Of a stretch of 64,000 nucleotides of DNA, positions 3,447 through 43,571 are shown in pieces. The stretch covers positions 2,874 through 66,873 of the forward strand of contig JAHJOQ010000110.1 of NCBI GenBank assembly GCA_018820315.1. Direction: 5' to 3'. Position numbers and translations under genes: made by a program. Position 1 is the stretch's first letter, and each line of letters begins with the position of its first letter. A model generated the notes under the pieces. That model made no database searches. It saw nothing but the letters and a program-made list of their open reading frames with translations, and had not been told where the DNA came from. Source of the DNA: Candidatus Zixiibacteriota bacterium (GTDB taxonomy: Bacteria; Zixibacteria; MSB-5A5; JAABVY01; JAHJOQ01).

Positions 3447-6400
3447 TGCTCAACCACTTTGATCTTTCCGCTCGATGCCACCGACGCCTTCATTGGTGCA
3501 TACATCGCCTCTGCTCTAACCGGGGGCAGAATGAATTCTCCCTGAGTGACGGCCCGCAAACCGTAATAGAATACCTCTTTGCGATTGTGACGGAAATCTC
3601 CGTATATGATCAGCCTGTCATCGCGAATGTCCATATACATCGGATTATATGCCTTATCGCCGATCCATCGTATGCCTCTGCGCGATTGCAGTCGCGGATT
3701 TTCGATTTCGAATCCCGCCGGAAGTAGATCAACTATCGCAACATTGCTGAGTGGCTCTGTCGGCGCGAGCACTGTTATCTCAGCGACAATCATATCGCCT
3801 TGTCTGAATCTATCGTATGCCATCTCATTGCCATTCTCATCGAGGTACCTTCTCCTGACAATCAAATCATTGTCGTATTCGTCAATGTGAAGCGTCGATG
3901 GAAGACCGTCAGCCCTCCAGAAATAATAGCAAGTCCCCTCGCCTGTAATTCGGATTGAGACTTCCTTCCCCGCCCACTCTTTGGAATCGAACCGGACATT
4001 CTCTACGCCAAAATCACCGAGTTTCTTCCCGTCGACTATGATGGTTCCGGTGTAGTGTGCCTCGGTCTGTTTACTCATGATCTTCCCAAGCGCGAGAAAT
4101 GCGAACGCATTGTCCTGGGTTGAATGCCACCGGCCGTTCTTAGATGCTGCCTCAGTCAGGTTAGCAACCAATCTCGCAATCAAGGGACTGTTCGCATCAA
4201 CCTCTGCGAGCACATCAAGCATGATCGCCTGAGCCCGAATCGGCGAATTGAAGTTGTCGCCGGTTTCGCGATTCGAATCATCGGTTGGAAGAGTTGCTGT
4301 CTTTGGAAGAAGCGACACAGCGCTGTTTCTATCGCCCGACAGTGCAAACGCGCCGGCAAGCTGGTATCTCGAATACTCAGAGAGCATGTCAAGCGCATTA
4401 TCCTTGATGAAGTGCATCGTATTGCGATTCGGTTCACCTGCCAGAGCAAGCACATAGCAAGCATACGCTACAGTCTGGAAGCTGTACCTCTCTGACATGC
4501 TGTAGTCCTTCGCCGATCTCTTCAGAGCGCTGATCATACGATTGTATGTTCGACCAGAGACAGTGTAGCCTGCGCGGCGAGCCTCCACTAGAAAGTGCGA
4601 GGCGTAAATCGAACTCCAGTTGTTTAGATACCCCCCCTGCGGCCAGTAGGAAAATGCGCCGGATGACTGCTGCATATTCTCCAGCCTGGCGATGCCTTCC
4701 TCAAGGAAATAGGTGGCACTGTTGACCTTGAAAAGATCCGGCTCCGCCAGTTTTGCGATATCCTCGAAATAGAGGAGCGGGAACAGCCTGGAAGTAGTCT
4801 GCTCAACGCATCCGTGCGGATACTGCAGCAGATACTGCAGACTTCGAGTGAACCTGACCGCCGGAAATGCGGCAATACTCAGAGAGAAGTCGGTAGTTCC
4901 CGGAACCCAATCAACCGGGAATGTAAATTCGACCGGCTTGCCTTCAGACAGCGAACCTGCTCCTGACAAAGTCGTAAATGGAACTGGCGGACGCAGTGGT
5001 ACATCCACCGAATAGCTGCTTCTCTCGCCTCCGCCACTCGCTTCGATCCCAAATGAAACCTTCCCGGTCTTTTCTTCAGCCTTCATTGCAAAAAGCACGA
5101 ATCCTTCGGAGTCATTAGCGATAGTCACTGACTGACTTTGCTCGCCCAGACACACAACAGGTCCGTCGACATCGATCTTGATTTCGAACGTAGCTTTCTC
5201 TCCGGTTCCGTTATAGACGCTCACGGGCACATTGAAACTGTCTCCTGAGCCTATGAAGCGCGGGAATGTCGGCGTGAGCACAATCGGCTCCCGCACAAAC
5301 ATTTCTCGCTCGGCATTTCCGAATTTGTTGCCTGCGGCTGCAACAGCCATCAATCTGAGCGTCCCGTTGAACTGCGGGATATCGAATGAGACTTTGCCGA
5401 AACCTCGATTATCAATCTTGACCAGCCCTGACCAAAATGCAACCGGCTTGACTCTGGTCACAGAGATCGGCGTAAGGTGCCGTTTTCTGGCAGCTTCGAC
5501 ATCACCGGAAGTAGCCGAAAGAGACGACTCTATTTCGGGCAATATCATACCGTAGATATCATAAGTGTCGATCATCAGGCGTTTCTTGCCGTAAAAGAAT
5601 GCCTGAGGATCGGGAGTCTGAAAATCGGTCAACTGGCAGATACCCTCATCGACAGCGGCGATTGTGATATAGGGCGTTTGGCCGCTCTGACCCGTTACAC
5701 GGAACTCTACGGGTAGAGTGGTTTTGGGTCTGATCTCATGAGGAACATCAAGTTCGACAGTCAGCCATCTGCTTTCGGTATTGACCACAAGTGGCACCAC
5801 TCCAAATGCCCGCACCGGAGTATCTCTGTCGAGTGATTTTGTTGATCTGATCAGATGAGCGGAGACATAGACATTCGGCAGGAAGTCCTCCTCGACGGGT
5901 ACGGTGATTGTCGCTGTGTTCTCTTCGAGCGTAATCACCCGCTGGCTCAACAGACGGTCTTTTTCTACAGTAACGAGGAGCTTACCGGCAAATGGTGCAC
6001 GTATCTGCACTTGAGCCTTATCACCCGGCAGGTATGTCTCCTTATCCAGATCAATCTCGATTCGATCAGGATTATCCATCGCCCACGGGGCATATCCCCA
6101 GCCGGAAGCATAGAAGTACAGCGATGCCGATGCACCCGACTCGATATCGCGCACGACAACGAGATACCTTCCGTAATCACCCGGCGTTACCGAGAACGAA
6201 CCAGTTCCATCGCCAGACTCGACTGTGAAGCTCTCGATTAGGTTTTTAACTCTCTCGGATTCATATCTATATCCGCCCCGTGAACTGACGCGCTTCAGCA
6301 CCGACTGCCAGTAAACCCTGTAGAACCTGACTTCCGCCTTCCGACCTTCGACCAGATTGCCCTCAGTATCCAATATTGCGAATTCGTGCTGAGTCTGAGC

Positions 6401-13894: not shown

Positions 13895-14665
13895 GTGGGG
13901 GAACGAACCAAGGTTTTAGTCACAGTTAAGACGTATCCGTTACCTTCAGAATCCTACATGGAGCTTGTTTGCACGGGAGGAGTGCTTGAAGACGGGCGCT
14001 TCATTCGTTTGTACCCGATTGACTACCGATATAAACCTTATGCAGAATGGTACAGGAAGTATCAATGGATTGAGATCGAAATTGAGAAGAACGCAAAAGA
14101 CCCTAGACCAGAATCATTCAGACAGACTCACGGTACGCGCATAACAGTTTTGGGCCAGCCTCTCCCAGCCGGGGGCTCATGGGCTGAGCGAAGACGTTAT
14201 GTCTTGGCGAGAGGTGTTTCCACAATGTGTGACCTACAGACAGACTCCCAAAAGGTGAGATCGTTGGGAATAATCAAGCCTAGAAAAGTAAGAGACTTAG
14301 TTGTTGAGAATGTTGCCGGAGAGTGGCCAGAGAAATGGAAGACGCTCTTTCAGCAGCAGGATCTTTTTGGTCCAGATCGCAAACCACTTGAGAAAGTCCC
14401 GTACAAGTTCTCTTATGTATACGACTGTGAGTCTCCCACATGCAGGGGACATAAGATGATGATCGAGGACTGGGAAGTCGGGCAGCTATACCGCGCGATG
14501 AGGGACAAATATGAAAGCGAATCCATTGCCGTCGACAAAGTCAAACAGAAGCTACTCGATCAGATGTGCGCGCCGGATAGAGACACATACTTCTATACAG
14601 GAACCGTTCTCAAACACGACACATGGATTCTGCTAGGTGTGTTTTGGCCAAAGCATATCAAATAG
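13895..14665 (+). CDS. Conserved hypothetical protein co-transcribed with the DUF488 gene (possible divergent dual-OB-type nucleic-acid-binding protein)
   Basis: GTG start with AGGGG RBS; motifs VKTYP.PS..Y.E.VCTGG, FIRLYP, KYQW, DPRPES, CESPTCRGH.M.IEDWE; 256 aa. Confidence 0.7.
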   Translation: MGERTKVLVTVKTYPLPSESYMELVCTGGVLEDGRFIRLYPIDYRYKPYAEWYRKYQWIEIEIEKNAKDPRPESFRQTHGTRITVLGQPLPAGGSWAERRRYVLARGVSTMCDLQTDSQKVRSLGIIKPRKVRDLVVENVAGEWPEKWKTLFQQQDLFGPDRKPLEKVPYKFSYVYDCESPTCRGHKMMIEDWEVGQLYRAMRDKYESESIAVDKVKQKLLDQMCAPDRDTYFYTGTVLKHDTWILLGVFWPKHIK

Positions 14666-38188: not shown

Positions 38189-38833
38189 ATGTCTTTTAGA
38201 AGATCTATAACAGGGTTGATCAGGAACCGGTTCATTTCCGGCCTACTGGTAATTGTACCGCTAGTCATTAGTTATCAGGTACTCAGCTTCCTTCTTGCCA
38301 AGCTGGACGGATTGCTGAGTCCGTTCTTTACAAGGTATCTCGGATACGAAGTTCCCGGGCTCGGAATTGTAGTCACGCTTCTGCTCATTCTGCTGGCAGG
38401 ATTCATCGCACACAGTGTCATCGGTGGCAGACTCATTCGGACGTGGGAGCGTCTGGTCGAGAAAGTACCTCTGGTCAGGACGGTCTACATCCCTGCGAAG
38501 CAGCTCCTTGAGACTATCACACCTAAGTCCCAATCATCTTTCAAGAGGGTTGCATTGGTAGAGTACCCTCGAAAAGACGTTTGGGTAATTGGATTTTTGG
38601 CGAACGATGTCGATCTAACTAGTGGAGGAATCGAGGGCGAGTATCGCGCGGTTTTCGTTGCATCGACACCCACGCCCTTCACCGGTTTTATGGCGATGAT
38701 CCCAAAGGACGACATTCATCCGATTGATATGCCCGTCGAGGAAGCCATCAAGTTCCTGGTTTCCGGCGGCGTCGCCTGCCCCAAGTCCTGGCTACCTGCC
38801 CTCGAACCTAATGAGCGGGAGGCTAGCGACTGA
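38189..38833 (+). CDS. DUF502 family membrane protein
   Basis: FISGLLVIVP, PGLG, VPLVRTVY, LVEYPR, VFVASTPTPFTGF, EAIKFLVSGG. Confidence 0.88.
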   Translation: MSFRRSITGLIRNRFISGLLVIVPLVISYQVLSFLLAKLDGLLSPFFTRYLGYEVPGLGIVVTLLLILLAGFIAHSVIGGRLIRTWERLVEKVPLVRTVYIPAKQLLETITPKSQSSFKRVALVEYPRKDVWVIGFLANDVDLTSGGIEGEYRAVFVASTPTPFTGFMAMIPKDDIHPIDMPVEEAIKFLVSGGVACPKSWLPALEPNEREASD

Positions 38834-39738
38834 TGAAGCTCTCCAGACTACTTGAGCCTGAATTGGTCAGAGTCGACCTTAAAGCATCCTCAAAAACAGA
38901 AGCAATCGTAGAACTGTTTGACCTTGTCCTCGCCAAGTATGATGGCATCGATCGTGAATCTGTTCTTAACTCGATCTTCGAGAGAGAGGAAATCGAAAAC
39001 ACATCGTACGGTCGAGGATTCTCATTTCCACATGCACGTACCGCCGAAGTCGATCGGATGTACGTATCCATGGGAATTTCGAAGAATGGTCTCGAAGATG
39101 AGACAATTGATGGCGAGCCGCTCAAGATCATCTGTCTAATGCTCACGCCGCGTAACATCTCAAAATTCTATCTACAGACACTTTCGGCTCTCGCTACTCT
39201 GGCAAGGGATCCGGAAAATAGAGCAGCACTGCTTCAAGCTAAATCGCCGCAGAACGTCATCGACCTCATCGCGTCATCCGGAATTGAGCTGAAAAAGGAA
39301 CTTGTGGTTAAGGATGTAATGGGTGAGGAGCCAGTCACTGTCACACCGGATAGAACTCTCAAGGAAGTGGCAAACCTGCTCTTCAAACACCGCATATCGG
39401 GTCTGCCTGTCGTAGATTATGAAGGTCATGTGATCGGGGAGATCACCAACCGTGATCTGATTCGAGCAGCCATGCCCGACTACCGGTCGCTGATCACCAA
39501 TCTCGCCCTCACCTATGAGGCAGAACCGTTCGAAAACCTCCTCAAACAGGAGGACAAGATCACGGTCGGCGAACTGATGACCTCGAATGTCTATGCGGTC
39601 GAAGAAGACGCTTCTGTCACCGAGGTCGCTGCCATGATGCTGTTCAAGGACCTGTATCGCGTCCCGGTCGTTCGAGACCAGAAAATCGTGGGCTTGGTTG
39701 TCATCTCCGACATGGTGGCTAAGATCATCCGAGGCTAG
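38833..39738 (+). CDS. PTS EIIA (fructose/Ntr-type) domain fused to a CBS pair
   Basis: EREEIENT..GRGFSFPHAR (phospho-His kept), DGEP; C-terminal VKDVM..V.V.P, SGLPVVD, YRVPVV. Confidence 0.85.
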   Translation: MKLSRLLEPELVRVDLKASSKTEAIVELFDLVLAKYDGIDRESVLNSIFEREEIENTSYGRGFSFPHARTAEVDRMYVSMGISKNGLEDETIDGEPLKIICLMLTPRNISKFYLQTLSALATLARDPENRAALLQAKSPQNVIDLIASSGIELKKELVVKDVMGEEPVTVTPDRTLKEVANLLFKHRISGLPVVDYEGHVIGEITNRDLIRAAMPDYRSLITNLALTYEAEPFENLLKQEDKITVGELMTSNVYAVEEDASVTEVAAMMLFKDLYRVPVVRDQKIVGLVVISDMVAKIIRG

Positions 39739-39938
39739 CCCGCACCACAATCGACGTATTCCCTGAGATCAAATCACTCAGATGCAGGTTGGAGTCTAGC
39801 TCTTGCGCATGATGCATCAAAGCCCGATTTTGGTTGAAGTGGTCGCAGGAATGGGTATATTAACTGGCAATATGGATAAGAGGCCACAGCATATGCGACA
39901 GGTATGTCGCTTAGTCACTTCACTGGGATACTTTTTCA

Positions 39939-41435
39939 ATGACCGCTAATACGCAAACAGAACTAGATTTTAAAGATAACTCAAGAAAATGGATGCATGT
40001 CCCGCCGGATGGCTACAAAGGGCTTTCGGGATTCCACAAGTATTGGGGGAAGAAGCCCACCGAAGCATGGCGATTTCTGATTGAGAATCTGACTGATGTT
40101 GATGAGATTGTCCTAGACCCGTTTCTCGGGTCTGGCCTAATCGCAAAGGAATGCACTGACCTAGAAAGGCGTTTCATTGGCTTTGACATCAATCCAATAA
40201 GCATAGAGTTAACAAAGCTCTATTTGGATCTGCCTAGCTATAAAGATCTGAATAATGCAATTACTTCTATCGAGAAGGAAGTTAGGCCGATCATCGATGA
40301 GATGTATCTCTTGTCTGCCAATAATATCGCCACACACATTCTGTGGGAGAACAACCGCATCACAAAGGTCTGGAAGAAAGTCGGGAAAAATCGAGTTGAG
40401 CTTGATGTAAGCGAAGATGAGATCATTGGACTGGAACATAAAGATATATACAATCCTGAATATATCAGAGACCTAAGGTTATTTGATAATTCGCGCATTA
40501 ATACTAAGAAAGAACTTGACATTAGGGACCTCTTCAACCCGCGAGCGTTAAGGGCTATCGACTTAGTTAGGAGTGAGATAGAGAAATATGACAAACGGAT
40601 GAAGAGAGCATTGTCGCTTATTCTGTCATCGTCACTTGGTCAGATGTCGGAAATGGTCTTTGCAGTTTCTAAACGAGGCAAGACCACTGGAAAGGAGAGC
40701 GAAAAGATAGAGGTGGGTAGCTGGGTAATAGGTTACTGGAGACCTGAACAACATTTTGAAATTAATGCATGGAATTGCTTCGAGAATAAAGCGAGAAAAT
40801 TACTAAAGGCCATTAGGGATATCGGAGCATTGAGACAGAACTCAATTGCATTGAATTTAGATAGGTTTCAGAATGATCGCTGTGATGTCTATGTATGCGT
40901 GGGTGACTCTGAGGATCTCTTGAAGGACATACCGTCCAAATCAGTTAGGGTAATACTGACCGATCCTCCGCACGGCGACAGAATTCCTTATTTGGAATTG
41001 AGCGAAATGTGGAACAGCATATTAGGGTTGGATTCAAAATATGATGGCGAGCTTGTAGTCTCAAATGCAAAAGGACGCGGCAAGGATATAGATGCCTATA
41101 ATAAGAAATTATCATTGATCTTTGGGCAATGTTCCCGCATTCTCAGAGATGATGGCTTACTGGCTGTTATGTTCAATGCAAGATCTGATGATCACTGGGA
41201 TAGTCTTCATGAGTTGGAAGAAGCCGCTGATCTCGAATATCTTGGTTGCTATCCCATGGAATATTCTGCTGGATCGGTAGTGCAAGATAACAGGAAGGGT
41301 GGATTGAAAACGGATTACGTACTCTTATACGGCAAAGACATTAGCAAAGAACGCCGGAAAAATATCATGGGAATATTCAACATAATGAATGAATGGTCAA
41401 CTGATTACCCCAAAAAGGCTAGCCGACCATGTTAG
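39939..41435 (+). CDS. Amino-(N6A/N4C) DNA methyltransferase of a restriction-modification pair
   Basis: FHKYWGKKP, motif I LDPFLGSG, distant motif IV TDPPH, YLELSEMW; AT-rich relative to the flanks. Confidence 0.85.
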   Translation: MTANTQTELDFKDNSRKWMHVPPDGYKGLSGFHKYWGKKPTEAWRFLIENLTDVDEIVLDPFLGSGLIAKECTDLERRFIGFDINPISIELTKLYLDLPSYKDLNNAITSIEKEVRPIIDEMYLLSANNIATHILWENNRITKVWKKVGKNRVELDVSEDEIIGLEHKDIYNPEYIRDLRLFDNSRINTKKELDIRDLFNPRALRAIDLVRSEIEKYDKRMKRALSLILSSSLGQMSEMVFAVSKRGKTTGKESEKIEVGSWVIGYWRPEQHFEINAWNCFENKARKLLKAIRDIGALRQNSIALNLDRFQNDRCDVYVCVGDSEDLLKDIPSKSVRVILTDPPHGDRIPYLELSEMWNSILGLDSKYDGELVVSNAKGRGKDIDAYNKKLSLIFGQCSRILRDDGLLAVMFNARSDDHWDSLHELEEAADLEYLGCYPMEYSAGSVVQDNRKGGLKTDYVLLYGKDISKERRKNIMGIFNIMNEWSTDYPKKASRPC

Positions 41436-42526
41436 ATTTCGATACCGCTAATCAGATGTTCAAGGATGATCAGATTCGCGAGCTTTCTTCAACAAGTGAG
41501 GGCATGCGATTTCTAAAATTGCGTTCTCTTTCCAGAAAAGACCAGATGCAGTACCTTATAGAAAGTTCCAATATTGATGTAGGAGATACCAAATCTAAAG
41601 TGTGGTTGAAGACACTATATGAGTCGGATGTCGAGACATCATCAATAGACAATGTAATAGCTAACTTGTATGAGAAGGAGAGAGAAGTAAGGCGACAACA
41701 TGAGAGTCAATTGGTGAGTGAGCTTTACAAGGTTCAGTCATTTCAGTGGGGCGGATTGCACCAGAACAGCCTGGAAAAAACAATAGTAGATAACTATGTG
41801 AAGAGAATCACTTCCTTTGATATTCTGAATTTTGCCATAGAGAATGACTTGCATAACAGCATGCGGGCTTATGTCTTAGCTTCATGGTACAATCACTGGA
41901 GCTCAATCGTCATAGAGGATGTTTTCAAAGAGCATGAAAAAGTAATACCAGCAGTAGGTCTAGTCAAAAAAATTGACTTTTTTGTCAATGACAAACCGTT
42001 CGACTTAAAAGTAACCTATTTACCTGAGGGTTATGTGCGAGATTCCCGGAAAGAACAAGGATTAAAGCCGGAACTTACTTTACTGAAATCCATGGCAAGG
42101 AGATTGAAGATTGCTTTTGATAAGGAAGTAGCGGATTCGGTTCTGGTTCCTGATCTGTGGAGAAAGTTGGACGACAGTCCTAGTGATAGCGCATCCGAGC
42201 TAATAGCCTCATTGCAGAAAAACAGAGAAACTCTCTTGAAAGAATGTATGGAAAAGCCGGAGCACTTAGTAAGATGGTTGTACGAAAATCAAGGGGTGCG
42301 ACGTTTTGATGCATCTAATCGGTTGTTCTTAGTTTTAGTTGACAAAGGTGATTTCTTTGAATCTTGGAAGCTGAAACGAGCAAGACAGTTAATAGCGGAT
42401 AGCGTAAGTTCGTATTTAGACAAGATTGAACAGGATATGGGTTTTGAACTAGAGTTTCATTGGGAAGGTAAAACTTATACAACCGAATCCGCTGCTATTT
42501 TCGTTGTTAAAGATTCCAAGACATAA
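41429..42526 (+). CDS. Putative type II restriction endonuclease (PD-(D/E)xK)
   Basis: Overlaps the MTase gene by 7 nt; WYNHW..IE, IDFF...FDLKVT catalytic-type motif, ENQG..RF..NRLF. Confidence 0.72.
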   Translation: MLDFDTANQMFKDDQIRELSSTSEGMRFLKLRSLSRKDQMQYLIESSNIDVGDTKSKVWLKTLYESDVETSSIDNVIANLYEKEREVRRQHESQLVSELYKVQSFQWGGLHQNSLEKTIVDNYVKRITSFDILNFAIENDLHNSMRAYVLASWYNHWSSIVIEDVFKEHEKVIPAVGLVKKIDFFVNDKPFDLKVTYLPEGYVRDSRKEQGLKPELTLLKSMARRLKIAFDKEVADSVLVPDLWRKLDDSPSDSASELIASLQKNRETLLKECMEKPEHLVRWLYENQGVRRFDASNRLFLVLVDKGDFFESWKLKRARQLIADSVSSYLDKIEQDMGFELEFHWEGKTYTTESAAIFVVKDSKT

Positions 42527-42577
42527 CAAAGTACTGCGCCTGCGTCCTGCATAGGCGGGCGAGCTTGGGCGTTATCG
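42521..42577 (+). mobile_element. Solitary attC-like integron recombination site
   Basis: R'' ACATAAC overlaps the REase stop codon; 5-nt spacer AAAGT; central GCC-TGC/GCA-GGC hairpin; right arm GAGCTTGGGCGTTAT is typical of attC ends; 57 bp in total; L boxes imperfect. Confidence 0.5.
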
Positions 42578-42599
42578 GCGTATGCCGGTCTGAACAATC

Positions 42600-43571
42600 A
42601 TGATGGAGCTTCTGGCAAACAAGTATTTCCTCTGGATAGGGTTCAACATCCTCGTCCTGCTGATGCTCGCCATCGATCTCGGATTCTTCCATCGCAAGGA
42701 TCACGAAATATCGATCAAGGAAGCTTTGCTCTGGAGCGTAATCTGGATCGTGGTAGCCCTGGTATTCAATGTTGGAGTCTATTTCTGGCGCGGGACTGAG
42801 GTATCTCTCCAGTTCTTCACCGGTTATGTGATTGAGAGGACGCTTAGTATAGACAACATTTTCGTTTTCCTGCTGATATTTACGTATTTTCAGGTGCCCA
42901 CCAAGTACCAGTACAAAGTACTCATCTGGGGAATTCTCGGTGCGCTGATCTTCAGAGGACTCTTCATAGCAGTCGGCACGATCCTGATCGCCAAATTCCA
43001 TTGGCTTATCTACGTTTTCGGGGCTTTTCTGGTCTTCACAGGTATCAGGATGGGATTCGGCGGCGACACCAAAGTTGAGCCGGAGAGAAATCCTATCCTC
43101 AGACTCGTTCGCAAGCTTCTGCCGATAACAGCAAAATATGAAGGGGGAAAATTCTTCGTCAGAAGAAACAAACGAACGCTCGGCACTCCACTATTGGTTG
43201 TGCTCGTGGTCATTGAGACGACCGATATTGTTTTCGCTGTCGACTCGATCCCTGCTATATTCGCAATCACGCTCGATCCATTCATTGTCTACACGTCCAA
43301 CGTATTCGCTATTCTCGGGCTGCGCGCGCTCTATTTCGCCATGGCAGGTCTCATGAAGCTATTCTACTATCTGAGGTATGCGCTTGCAGCCATCCTGTCT
43401 CTTGTAGGTATTAAGATGCTTCTTTCGACGATCTATCCTATCCCCAATAGCATCGCACTGGGAACGGTGGCACTATTGCTTGCAGCCTCGATAATACTGT
43501 CGCTAATTTTCCCAAAGAAGAATGGCGAGACCGGAGACAAACATCCTGAGCAGACATCAAGAACAGCCTGA
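42600..43571 (+). CDS. TerC/Alx family membrane protein
   Basis: FFTGYVIERTLSIDNIFVF, GILGALIFR, IETTDIVFAVDSIPAIFA, SNVFAILGLRALYF. Confidence 0.93.
   Translation: MMELLANKYFLWIGFNILVLLMLAIDLGFFHRKDHEISIKEALLWSVIWIVVALVFNVGVYFWRGTEVSLQFFTGYVIERTLSIDNIFVFLLIFTYFQVPTKYQYKVLIWGILGALIFRGLFIAVGTILIAKFHWLIYVFGAFLVFTGIRMGFGGDTKVEPERNPILRLVRKLLPITAKYEGGKFFVRRNKRTLGTPLLVVLVVIETTDIVFAVDSIPAIFAITLDPFIVYTSNVFAILGLRALYFAMAGLMKLFYYLRYALAAILSLVGIKMLLSTIYPIPNSIALGTVALLLAASIILSLIFPKKNGETGDKHPEQTSRTA

Follow-up and report, generated by a model that had tools for sequence, protein, structure and literature searches.

Known solitary cassettes and the locus under study

An aadB gene cassette in RSF1010 (plasmid pIE723) is said to be a precise single insertion at a secondary, non-att site, lying downstream of a resident promoter on which its expression reportedly depends. 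That case as reported, with its plasmid, its antibiotic resistance gene and its class 1 integron context, differs from the locus described here, which lies in a 64-kb stretch of the genome of an uncultured, Zixibacteria-like bacterium (contig JAHJOQ010000110.1; this stretch is called the window, and the window searches were limited to its 64 kb). At this locus a restriction-modification (R-M) gene pair, followed by a 57-nt attC-like element, stands between two host genes. Experiments have demonstrated solo cassettes that sit at genomic GWT sites and are driven by promoters nearby, and the phenomenon already has a name, single attC site lacking integron-associated integrase (SALIN) or attG insertion (bioRxiv 10.1101/2022.09.11.507474). 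The locus is probably a solo cassette of the SALIN/attG type; the phenomenon is known and named, and no new mechanism is involved. As in the described cases a single cassette and its attC are present, with neither an integrase nor a further att site found nearby, the crossover would be of the G|TT (GWT) type and outside an integron, and the orientation and the position downstream of a resident promoter would allow expression. Unlike those cases the locus is a natural one, in an uncultured Zixibacteria-like lineage, and the cassette is large and carries two genes; furthermore, its attC is shortened, its left triplet is mutated (GGT), and we infer the catalysis by an integrase.

R-M systems as integron cassettes are also on record, an example being the R-M cassette of XbaI, which Ghaly et al. 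2023 (PMC10661359) cite. Like the cassettes of this type, as far as they are described there, the one in the window holds a methyltransferase gene and a putative nuclease gene together in a single attC-ended unit, but it belongs to another protein family, no recognisable family and no solved structure could be matched to its partner protein, and it lies outside an array. A homolog of the defence cassette Tragantia that lies outside integrons and has a pseudo-attC was described in Marinobacter (Kieffer et al., bioRxiv 10.1101/2024.07.02.601719). By that account it too is a defence system that is otherwise cassette-borne but is found elsewhere in the chromosome, with a degenerate attC and a mismatch at the conserved crossover point; it is part of a defence island, whereas the window locus has a documented empty site and cassette-precise ends. 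The locus is a well-documented natural example of a process that has so far been shown mainly in the laboratory, namely, the insertion of a solo cassette at a chromosomal non-att site beside a promoter able to drive it, and its record is unusually complete in that it comprises the empty site, the filled one and arrays of the donor type. The cargo is a putative anti-phage defence system and the host belongs to an uncultured phylum, which suggests that, by way of integrons, defence genes can reach genomes outside the integron platforms themselves.

An insertion in the terC leader

The initial annotation had described a two-gene block of low GC content between housekeeping genes, and this description holds. 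Both open reading frames (ORFs), 39939-41435 (498 amino acids) and 41429-42526 (365 amino acids), are intact, are on the same strand and overlap by 7 nt, and the GC content is 41.5% in 39902-42571 compared with 50.3% in the whole window. The host gene upstream codes for a fusion protein of a phosphotransferase system EIIA domain (Ntr-type) and CBS (PTS-CBS; 38833..39738, + strand; Pfam PF00359 and PF00571), and the host gene downstream, terC, codes for a TerC/Alx family membrane protein (42600..43571, + strand; TIGR03718, 416 bits). Relatives of the flanking PTS-CBS protein are 71-95% identical to it and, where they are named, they are from Candidatus Zixibacteria.

It had been proposed to look in relatives for an empty site between PTS-CBS and terC, and six such sites were found. 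In L087, L088, L089, L003, L005, and L006 the PTS-CBS gene is directly followed by terC without the R-M pair; the identity of the flanking protein to that of the window is 95% in L087 and L088, 89% in L089, 76% in L003, 71% in L005, and 82% in L006 over the 130 residues held by its contig. The initial annotation had also taken synteny of the R-M pair in relatives as an argument against a mobile cassette; the pair is absent from the locus in all six. The R-M block is an insertion relative to these relatives. The PTS-CBS/terC spacer is 192 nt in the three closest of them (L087-L089), while the window has 273 nt of non-coding and 2,588 nt of coding sequence in its place, so that about 2,669 bases are extra. 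Split alignment with the empty sites placed the left junction in 39891-39924 and the right junction in 42560-42590; the pair 39900/42572 is among the near-optimal solutions and fits a G|TT crossover. The ancestral target is unreadable in the diverged spacer of the relatives, and the right junction, G|TTATCG, fits a GWT crossover target. A metagenome contig scan with TerC returned no relative closer than 72%.

A promoter-like site of terC, TTGAAG-16-TATATT, was found by a consensus scan at 39834..39861 (+ strand). It sits inside a motif, CGATTTTGGTTG...TATATT (window 39826-39862), that is conserved in L087, L088, L089, and L002-L006 and is thus carried by all the empty-site relatives. The position of this conserved motif, ahead of the methyltransferase gene, puts the insertion in the leader of terC. 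The cassette lies about 40 nt downstream of the promoter-like site in the same orientation as terC and now separates terC from it, and no terminator-like site was found between 42527 and 42599. If 39834..39861 works as a promoter, the promoterless cassette, which has the same direction as terC, is probably transcribed from it; it is therefore to be expected that the genes for the methyltransferase and its partner are co-transcribed with terC from the terC promoter, with terC reached by read-through.

The region between the two host genes (window 39739-39900 and 42578-42599; L087:6319-6510) contains the conserved promoter-like motif and a leader of about 115 nt that is poorly conserved. The TerC protein of the window is of the 'riboswitch-associated' Alx subfamily (TIGR03718). 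Rfam found no yybP-ykoY riboswitch before terC in the window or in the five GTDB relatives scanned (L002-L006); it gave no family match near the locus or in relatives, and no attC family was returned.

A cassette can also be left over where an integron or a cassette array was once resident, that is, as a decayed cluster of attC sites lacking an integron integrase (CALIN), and CALINs occur widely and may dwindle to a single cassette (10.1101/2022.09.11.507474). We regard this history as extremely unlikely for the present locus. Against it, the six relatives, over their range of 71-95% identity, have an intact colinear spacer with the promoter motif, and no attI, intI or other attC was found at the locus in any of them. 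Nor does the window contain a second attC according to the covariance model R2 described below, which gave no other match above 10.6 bits in the 64 kb.

The R-M pair as a cassette in integron arrays

Homologs of the R-M pair are cassettes in attC arrays. This was observed for L159, L158, L116, L126, and L179, which represent at least five unrelated lineages; a cassette context was also counted for L179-L181. In L159 (Casimicrobiaceae) the array has at least 10 attC sites spaced by 0.4-1 kb, the R-M pair is one cassette of about 2,676 bp, and in each R' the final six bases exactly complement the R'' of the cassette that follows. In L158 (Planctomycetaceae) the pair is the first cassette and lies beside a divergently oriented N-terminal fragment of an integron integrase, which is 62% identical to IntI1 over the 29 residues held by the contig. 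In L116 and L126 attC sites of 27-39 bits follow directly after the pair. About 75 of the 80 homologous R-M loci, for example those in Poribacteria, have no attC, and this is also the case for the homolog that is closest by protein, P0002 (74%). A blastn comparison of the window flanks with the 80 R-M loci gave no match.

The closest cassette-borne homolog is L179 (P0003), with 70% identity in both proteins. Four attC sites, which score 16.6-24.8 bits and conform to the chain rule, lie upstream of it. The DNA of the L179 and window cassettes is 69% identical in the same register over positions 93-2588, counted in each from its proposed left end, and L179 is the basis for the delimitation of the cassette below.

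Two of these homologs have features of their own. Directly after the L179 array (L179:7250-7700) the + strand carries a C-terminal tyrosine-recombinase-like motif, in which tblastn found no IntI1 homolog, and a tRNA gene follows on the - strand; the array may be in or beside an island integrated at the tRNA gene. A 13-nt direct repeat, CGATTGGCGGACC, brackets the R-M homolog in L151 (Candidatus Ozemobacter) at about 4880-4900 and 6148-6165, and the R' of this homolog is GATTGGC, with GAT in place of GTT; L151 may be another off-site or variant insertion.

Ends of the inserted cassette

In L179 the start of the cassette is G|TTATGT, located 31 nt ahead of the ATG of the methyltransferase gene. 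The initial annotation had pointed to a near-complement of R'', GGTATGT, before the methyltransferase ATG in the window; this motif is present (39901-39907, + strand; 38 nt from start to start) and, being also 31 nt before the ATG, it occupies the position of the cassette boundary of L179. It agrees at 6 of 7 positions with GTTATGT, which is expected as the complement of the R'' ACATAAC, and the chance of at least 6 matches in 7 at one fixed position is about 0.0013. The left junction, G|GTATGT, is therefore in the same register as that of L179, and one substitution after insertion would explain its sequence. With the L179 boundary register the window cassette extends from 39902 to 42571 (+ strand) and is 2,670 bp long, which matches the approximately 2,669 extra bases deduced from the empty site. 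Judged by alignment, both ends of the window cassette are homologous to the ends of the L179 cassette. A Logan contig, L001, covers the same locus, but it is 100% identical to the window and so gives no independent confirmation of the GGT junction.

A degenerate attC site behind the R-M pair

The right end of the cassette is formed by a degenerate attC site of 57 nt (42521..42577, + strand), which was recognised by its geometry, by the model R2 and by homology to the attC of L179. Its parts are R'' ACATAAC (42521-27), a 5-nt spacer (42528-32), L'' ACT(G)CGCC (42533-40), the centre (42541-57), L' GGCGAGC (42558-64), a 6-nt spacer (42565-70), and R' GTTATCG (42571-77), all on the + strand, and the presumed crossover is between G42571 and T42572. 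The initial annotation had placed the TAA stop of the second gene within ACATAAC, and it is there (42524-42526 within 42521-42527). It had also claimed a 57-bp imperfect hairpin; the element and its end, GAGCTTGGGCGTTATCG at 42577, are present, but the fold is not thermodynamically unusual. Since the fold energy does not exceed that of shuffled sequences, it is by position and homology that the element is distinguished. A rule-based scan found the canonical 7-5-8...7-6-7 layout, with an L'' of 8 nt and a bulged fourth base. ACT(G)CGCC pairs with GGCGAGC at 6 of 7 positions, or 8 of 9 when extended, and the pairing is kept through an exchange of G:C for A:T; the bulged G at position 4 is as in the cmlA5 attC and in the ACATAAC family. 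The R'' fits RYYYAAC at 6 of 7 positions, and the array-resident attC sites of L179 and of 14 GTDB loci have an identical R''. Such a scan gives about 2 chance matches per 64 kb, and the count alone is therefore uninformative. The second rule-based match in the window, 14139-14202 on the - strand, was rejected as a chance match; it lies inside the ORF 13895-14665 and has no support from the covariance model.

The comparison with L179 is more specific. The L179 attC, ACATAACAAGGC...GGTGAGCTTAGTTGTTATGT, and the window element, ACATAACAAAGT...GGCGAGCTTGGGCGTTATCG, have 24 of 32 flank positions in common (about 4e-9 per placement), so that the sequence downstream of the R-M pair, far from being unrelated, is homologous to the attC of a cassette-borne relative. 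The two share the pattern ACATAAC...GAGCTT...GTTAT. A search with a pattern derived from both gave 14 GTDB sites where about 2 were expected, and 11 of the 14 are canonical attC sites of 70-71 nt and 33-52 bits that lie in multi-attC arrays from widely differing taxa.

A general attC covariance model, R2, was built by ourselves from 19 seeds (11 environmental ones and 8 from class 1 integron cassettes of plasmids), with long centres trimmed and with the window excluded from the seeds. Its top match in the whole window, on both strands, is 42521-42577 with exactly the expected ends. A model hit of this kind had been suggested as a check; the location came out as predicted, while the score is borderline for this home-made model (12.5 bits, E 0.66 for the whole window). 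When the search is restricted to about 100 nt behind the inserted genes on one strand, E is about 5e-4. As controls, held-out true attC sites scored 27-53 bits and degenerate array-resident ones 8-18 bits, the shortened array-resident relatives among them being L179 (9.2), L183 (17.2), and L196 (17.6 bits). A narrower model, R1, with 7 seeds mostly from one array, was set aside as an unfair test because it is too lineage-specific. Solo cassettes with a decayed attC will escape standard attC models.

The attC type ACATAACAAGGCGCTGCA...GAGCTT...GTTATG, 70-71 nt long, is common to cassette arrays of very different taxa (L183-L196). Examples are L187:265-334, L194:3896-3965, L192:2680-2749, and L185:1694-1763. 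The arrays with this type include metagenome-assembled genomes labelled Methanosarcina and Micrarchaeota, and shortened variants of 44-55 nt also occur in arrays.

Route of entry of the cassette

A number of observations weigh against the view that an integron cassette was inserted here by an integrase, and we consider them together. The first concern the identity of the element as an attC. The fold of 42515-42600 has a z-score of only -0.4 to -1.1 relative to dinucleotide shuffles, as DNA of both strands and as RNA. The R2 score is low, and R1 gave 7.1 bits with an E of 7. The R' GTTATCG fits GTTRRRY at 4 of 7 positions only, as would be the case if the right part of the R' came from the target DNA. 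Compared with the 70-nt family, the window element is without about 13 nt in the 5' half of the central stem and has no GAC motif (the second extrahelical base), with CCTGCG where the family has CCTGAC, and the similarity of its interior to the family interiors is not significant (z 0.6). Moreover, the family was found by a pattern derived from the window and L179, and membership at those positions is partly circular. The other observations concern the event itself. The left crossover triplet is GGT where GTT is invariant, the one mismatch falling within the GTT. The spacers of the relatives are only about 70% identical, so that the junctions carry an uncertainty of about 15 nt to each side and cannot be fixed more closely from the relatives alone. 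Lastly, the initial annotation had noted that the window has no integrase, and tblastn with IntI1 as the query (E<=0.01) indeed found no homolog in the 64 kb.

One could argue from the first group that the R-M unit was moved in some other way, R-M systems being themselves mobile, and that the 57-nt element and GGTATGT resemble attC and a cassette end by chance. The unremarkable z-scores, the two or so chance matches per 64 kb of the rule-based scan, the E of 0.66 with R2, and the many homologous R-M loci that lack an attC are all compatible with this. It is nevertheless very improbable in our estimation, as the top R2 match falls precisely on the stop codon that closes the inserted gene pair, where the restricted E applies; three quarters of the flank positions are those of the attC of the nearest cassette-borne homolog, and the left motif is at the same distance from the ATG as in L179. 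The six empty sites all lack the 57-nt element. We hold it to be very likely that the insert goes back to an integron cassette, by one route or another.

As for the route, DNA from an array could have entered without an integrase, for example by illegitimate or microhomology-mediated joining of a taken-up fragment, with the attC as a passenger. The GGT at the left junction, the missing integrase, the limited resolution of the junctions, and a shortened attC that possibly is not recombination-competent are all in keeping with such an entry. On the other hand, both ends match the ends of the L179 cassette in the same register and the extra length is that of one cassette (2,669 predicted versus 2,670), whereas a random fragment would be expected to bring parts of neighbouring cassettes or an incomplete cassette. 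We therefore judge entry without an integrase to be improbable, though it deserves more weight than the chance resemblance discussed above.

Integrase-mediated insertion of a solo cassette outside an integron remains the probable explanation. The initial annotation had read the locus as an R-M cassette at a non-integron site, and the empty sites, the homologous cassettes and the ends shared with L179 support that reading; the part played by an integrase is deduced from these. In this scheme an integron integrase supplied from elsewhere would have acted on a circular cassette and recombined its folded attC with a non-canonical GWT site in the genome (an 'attG' or secondary site), which would leave G|TT... 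junctions at both ends. The result would be a complete cassette, consisting of a short 5' leader, the methyltransferase gene, the coupled partner gene and the attC, that stands alone in the 5' untranslated leader of terC and, having no promoter of its own, would be expressed from the terC promoter, with terC served by read-through. The cassette is probably fixed in place, because the left triplet GGT and the shortened attC would make re-excision unlikely. The attC of the window either decayed since the insertion or arrived already shortened.

The methyltransferase and its partner protein

The first gene of the cassette (39939..41435, + strand) codes for a Type II DNA methyltransferase, an amino-methyltransferase (PF01555, 61 bits; PADLOC MTase_II, 3e-43). 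DPFLGSG at residue 60 is its motif I and DPPH at residue 342 its motif IV; the motif order is permuted relative to the Pfam beta-class model. From the DPPH and established knowledge of these motifs, the enzyme is predicted to be N6-adenine specific.

The second gene (41429..42526, + strand), which overlaps the methyltransferase gene by 7 nt, codes for a partner protein of 365 amino acids, a putative restriction endonuclease. It has no match in Pfam, NCBIfam, PADLOC, PHROGs or PDB sequences, but 2,556 homologs were found. In 77 of the 80 best loci of these homologs, from more than 10 phyla, a methyltransferase homolog is immediately upstream on the same strand. Four residues, E163, D183, D192, and K194, are invariant. 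The AlphaFold2 model is confident (predicted local distance difference test 88), and its helix-strand-strand-strand-helix-strand order is compatible with a PD-(D/E)XK core. On the strength of the conserved pairing with its translational coupling, the invariant residues, the predicted fold, and the patchy distribution over phyla, the partner is most likely the cognate restriction endonuclease, and the cassette would then confer restriction.

The family of the partner protein has more than 2,500 members in bacteria and archaea, the latter as homologs in archaeal metagenome-assembled genomes, and it is without annotation and without a structural relative that could be found. The locus thereby flags a large uncharacterised family of probable restriction enzymes. 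A more far-reaching proposal, which we put forward tentatively and with some doubt, is that the partner founds an uncharacterised family of Type II restriction endonucleases, that this family spread between phyla largely as a cassette with one shared attC type, and that the locus records its integrase-mediated delivery into an integron-less lineage.

Other observations

A direct near-repeat, 18 of 21 positions being identical, occurs at window 39788-39808 and 42771-42791. The first copy, GTTGGAGTCTAGCTCTTGCGC, is intergenic, lies upstream of the promoter-like site and is conserved in L087 and L088, and the second copy is inside terC; the near-repeat is unrelated to the insertion. In a class 1 integron on a plasmid of Acinetobacter johnsonii (L174:3058-5042), msrB, msrA, and a gene for a ZIP-family transporter lie between attI and a single attC (4972-5042), and this msrB-msrA-ZIP unit looks like a three-gene cassette.

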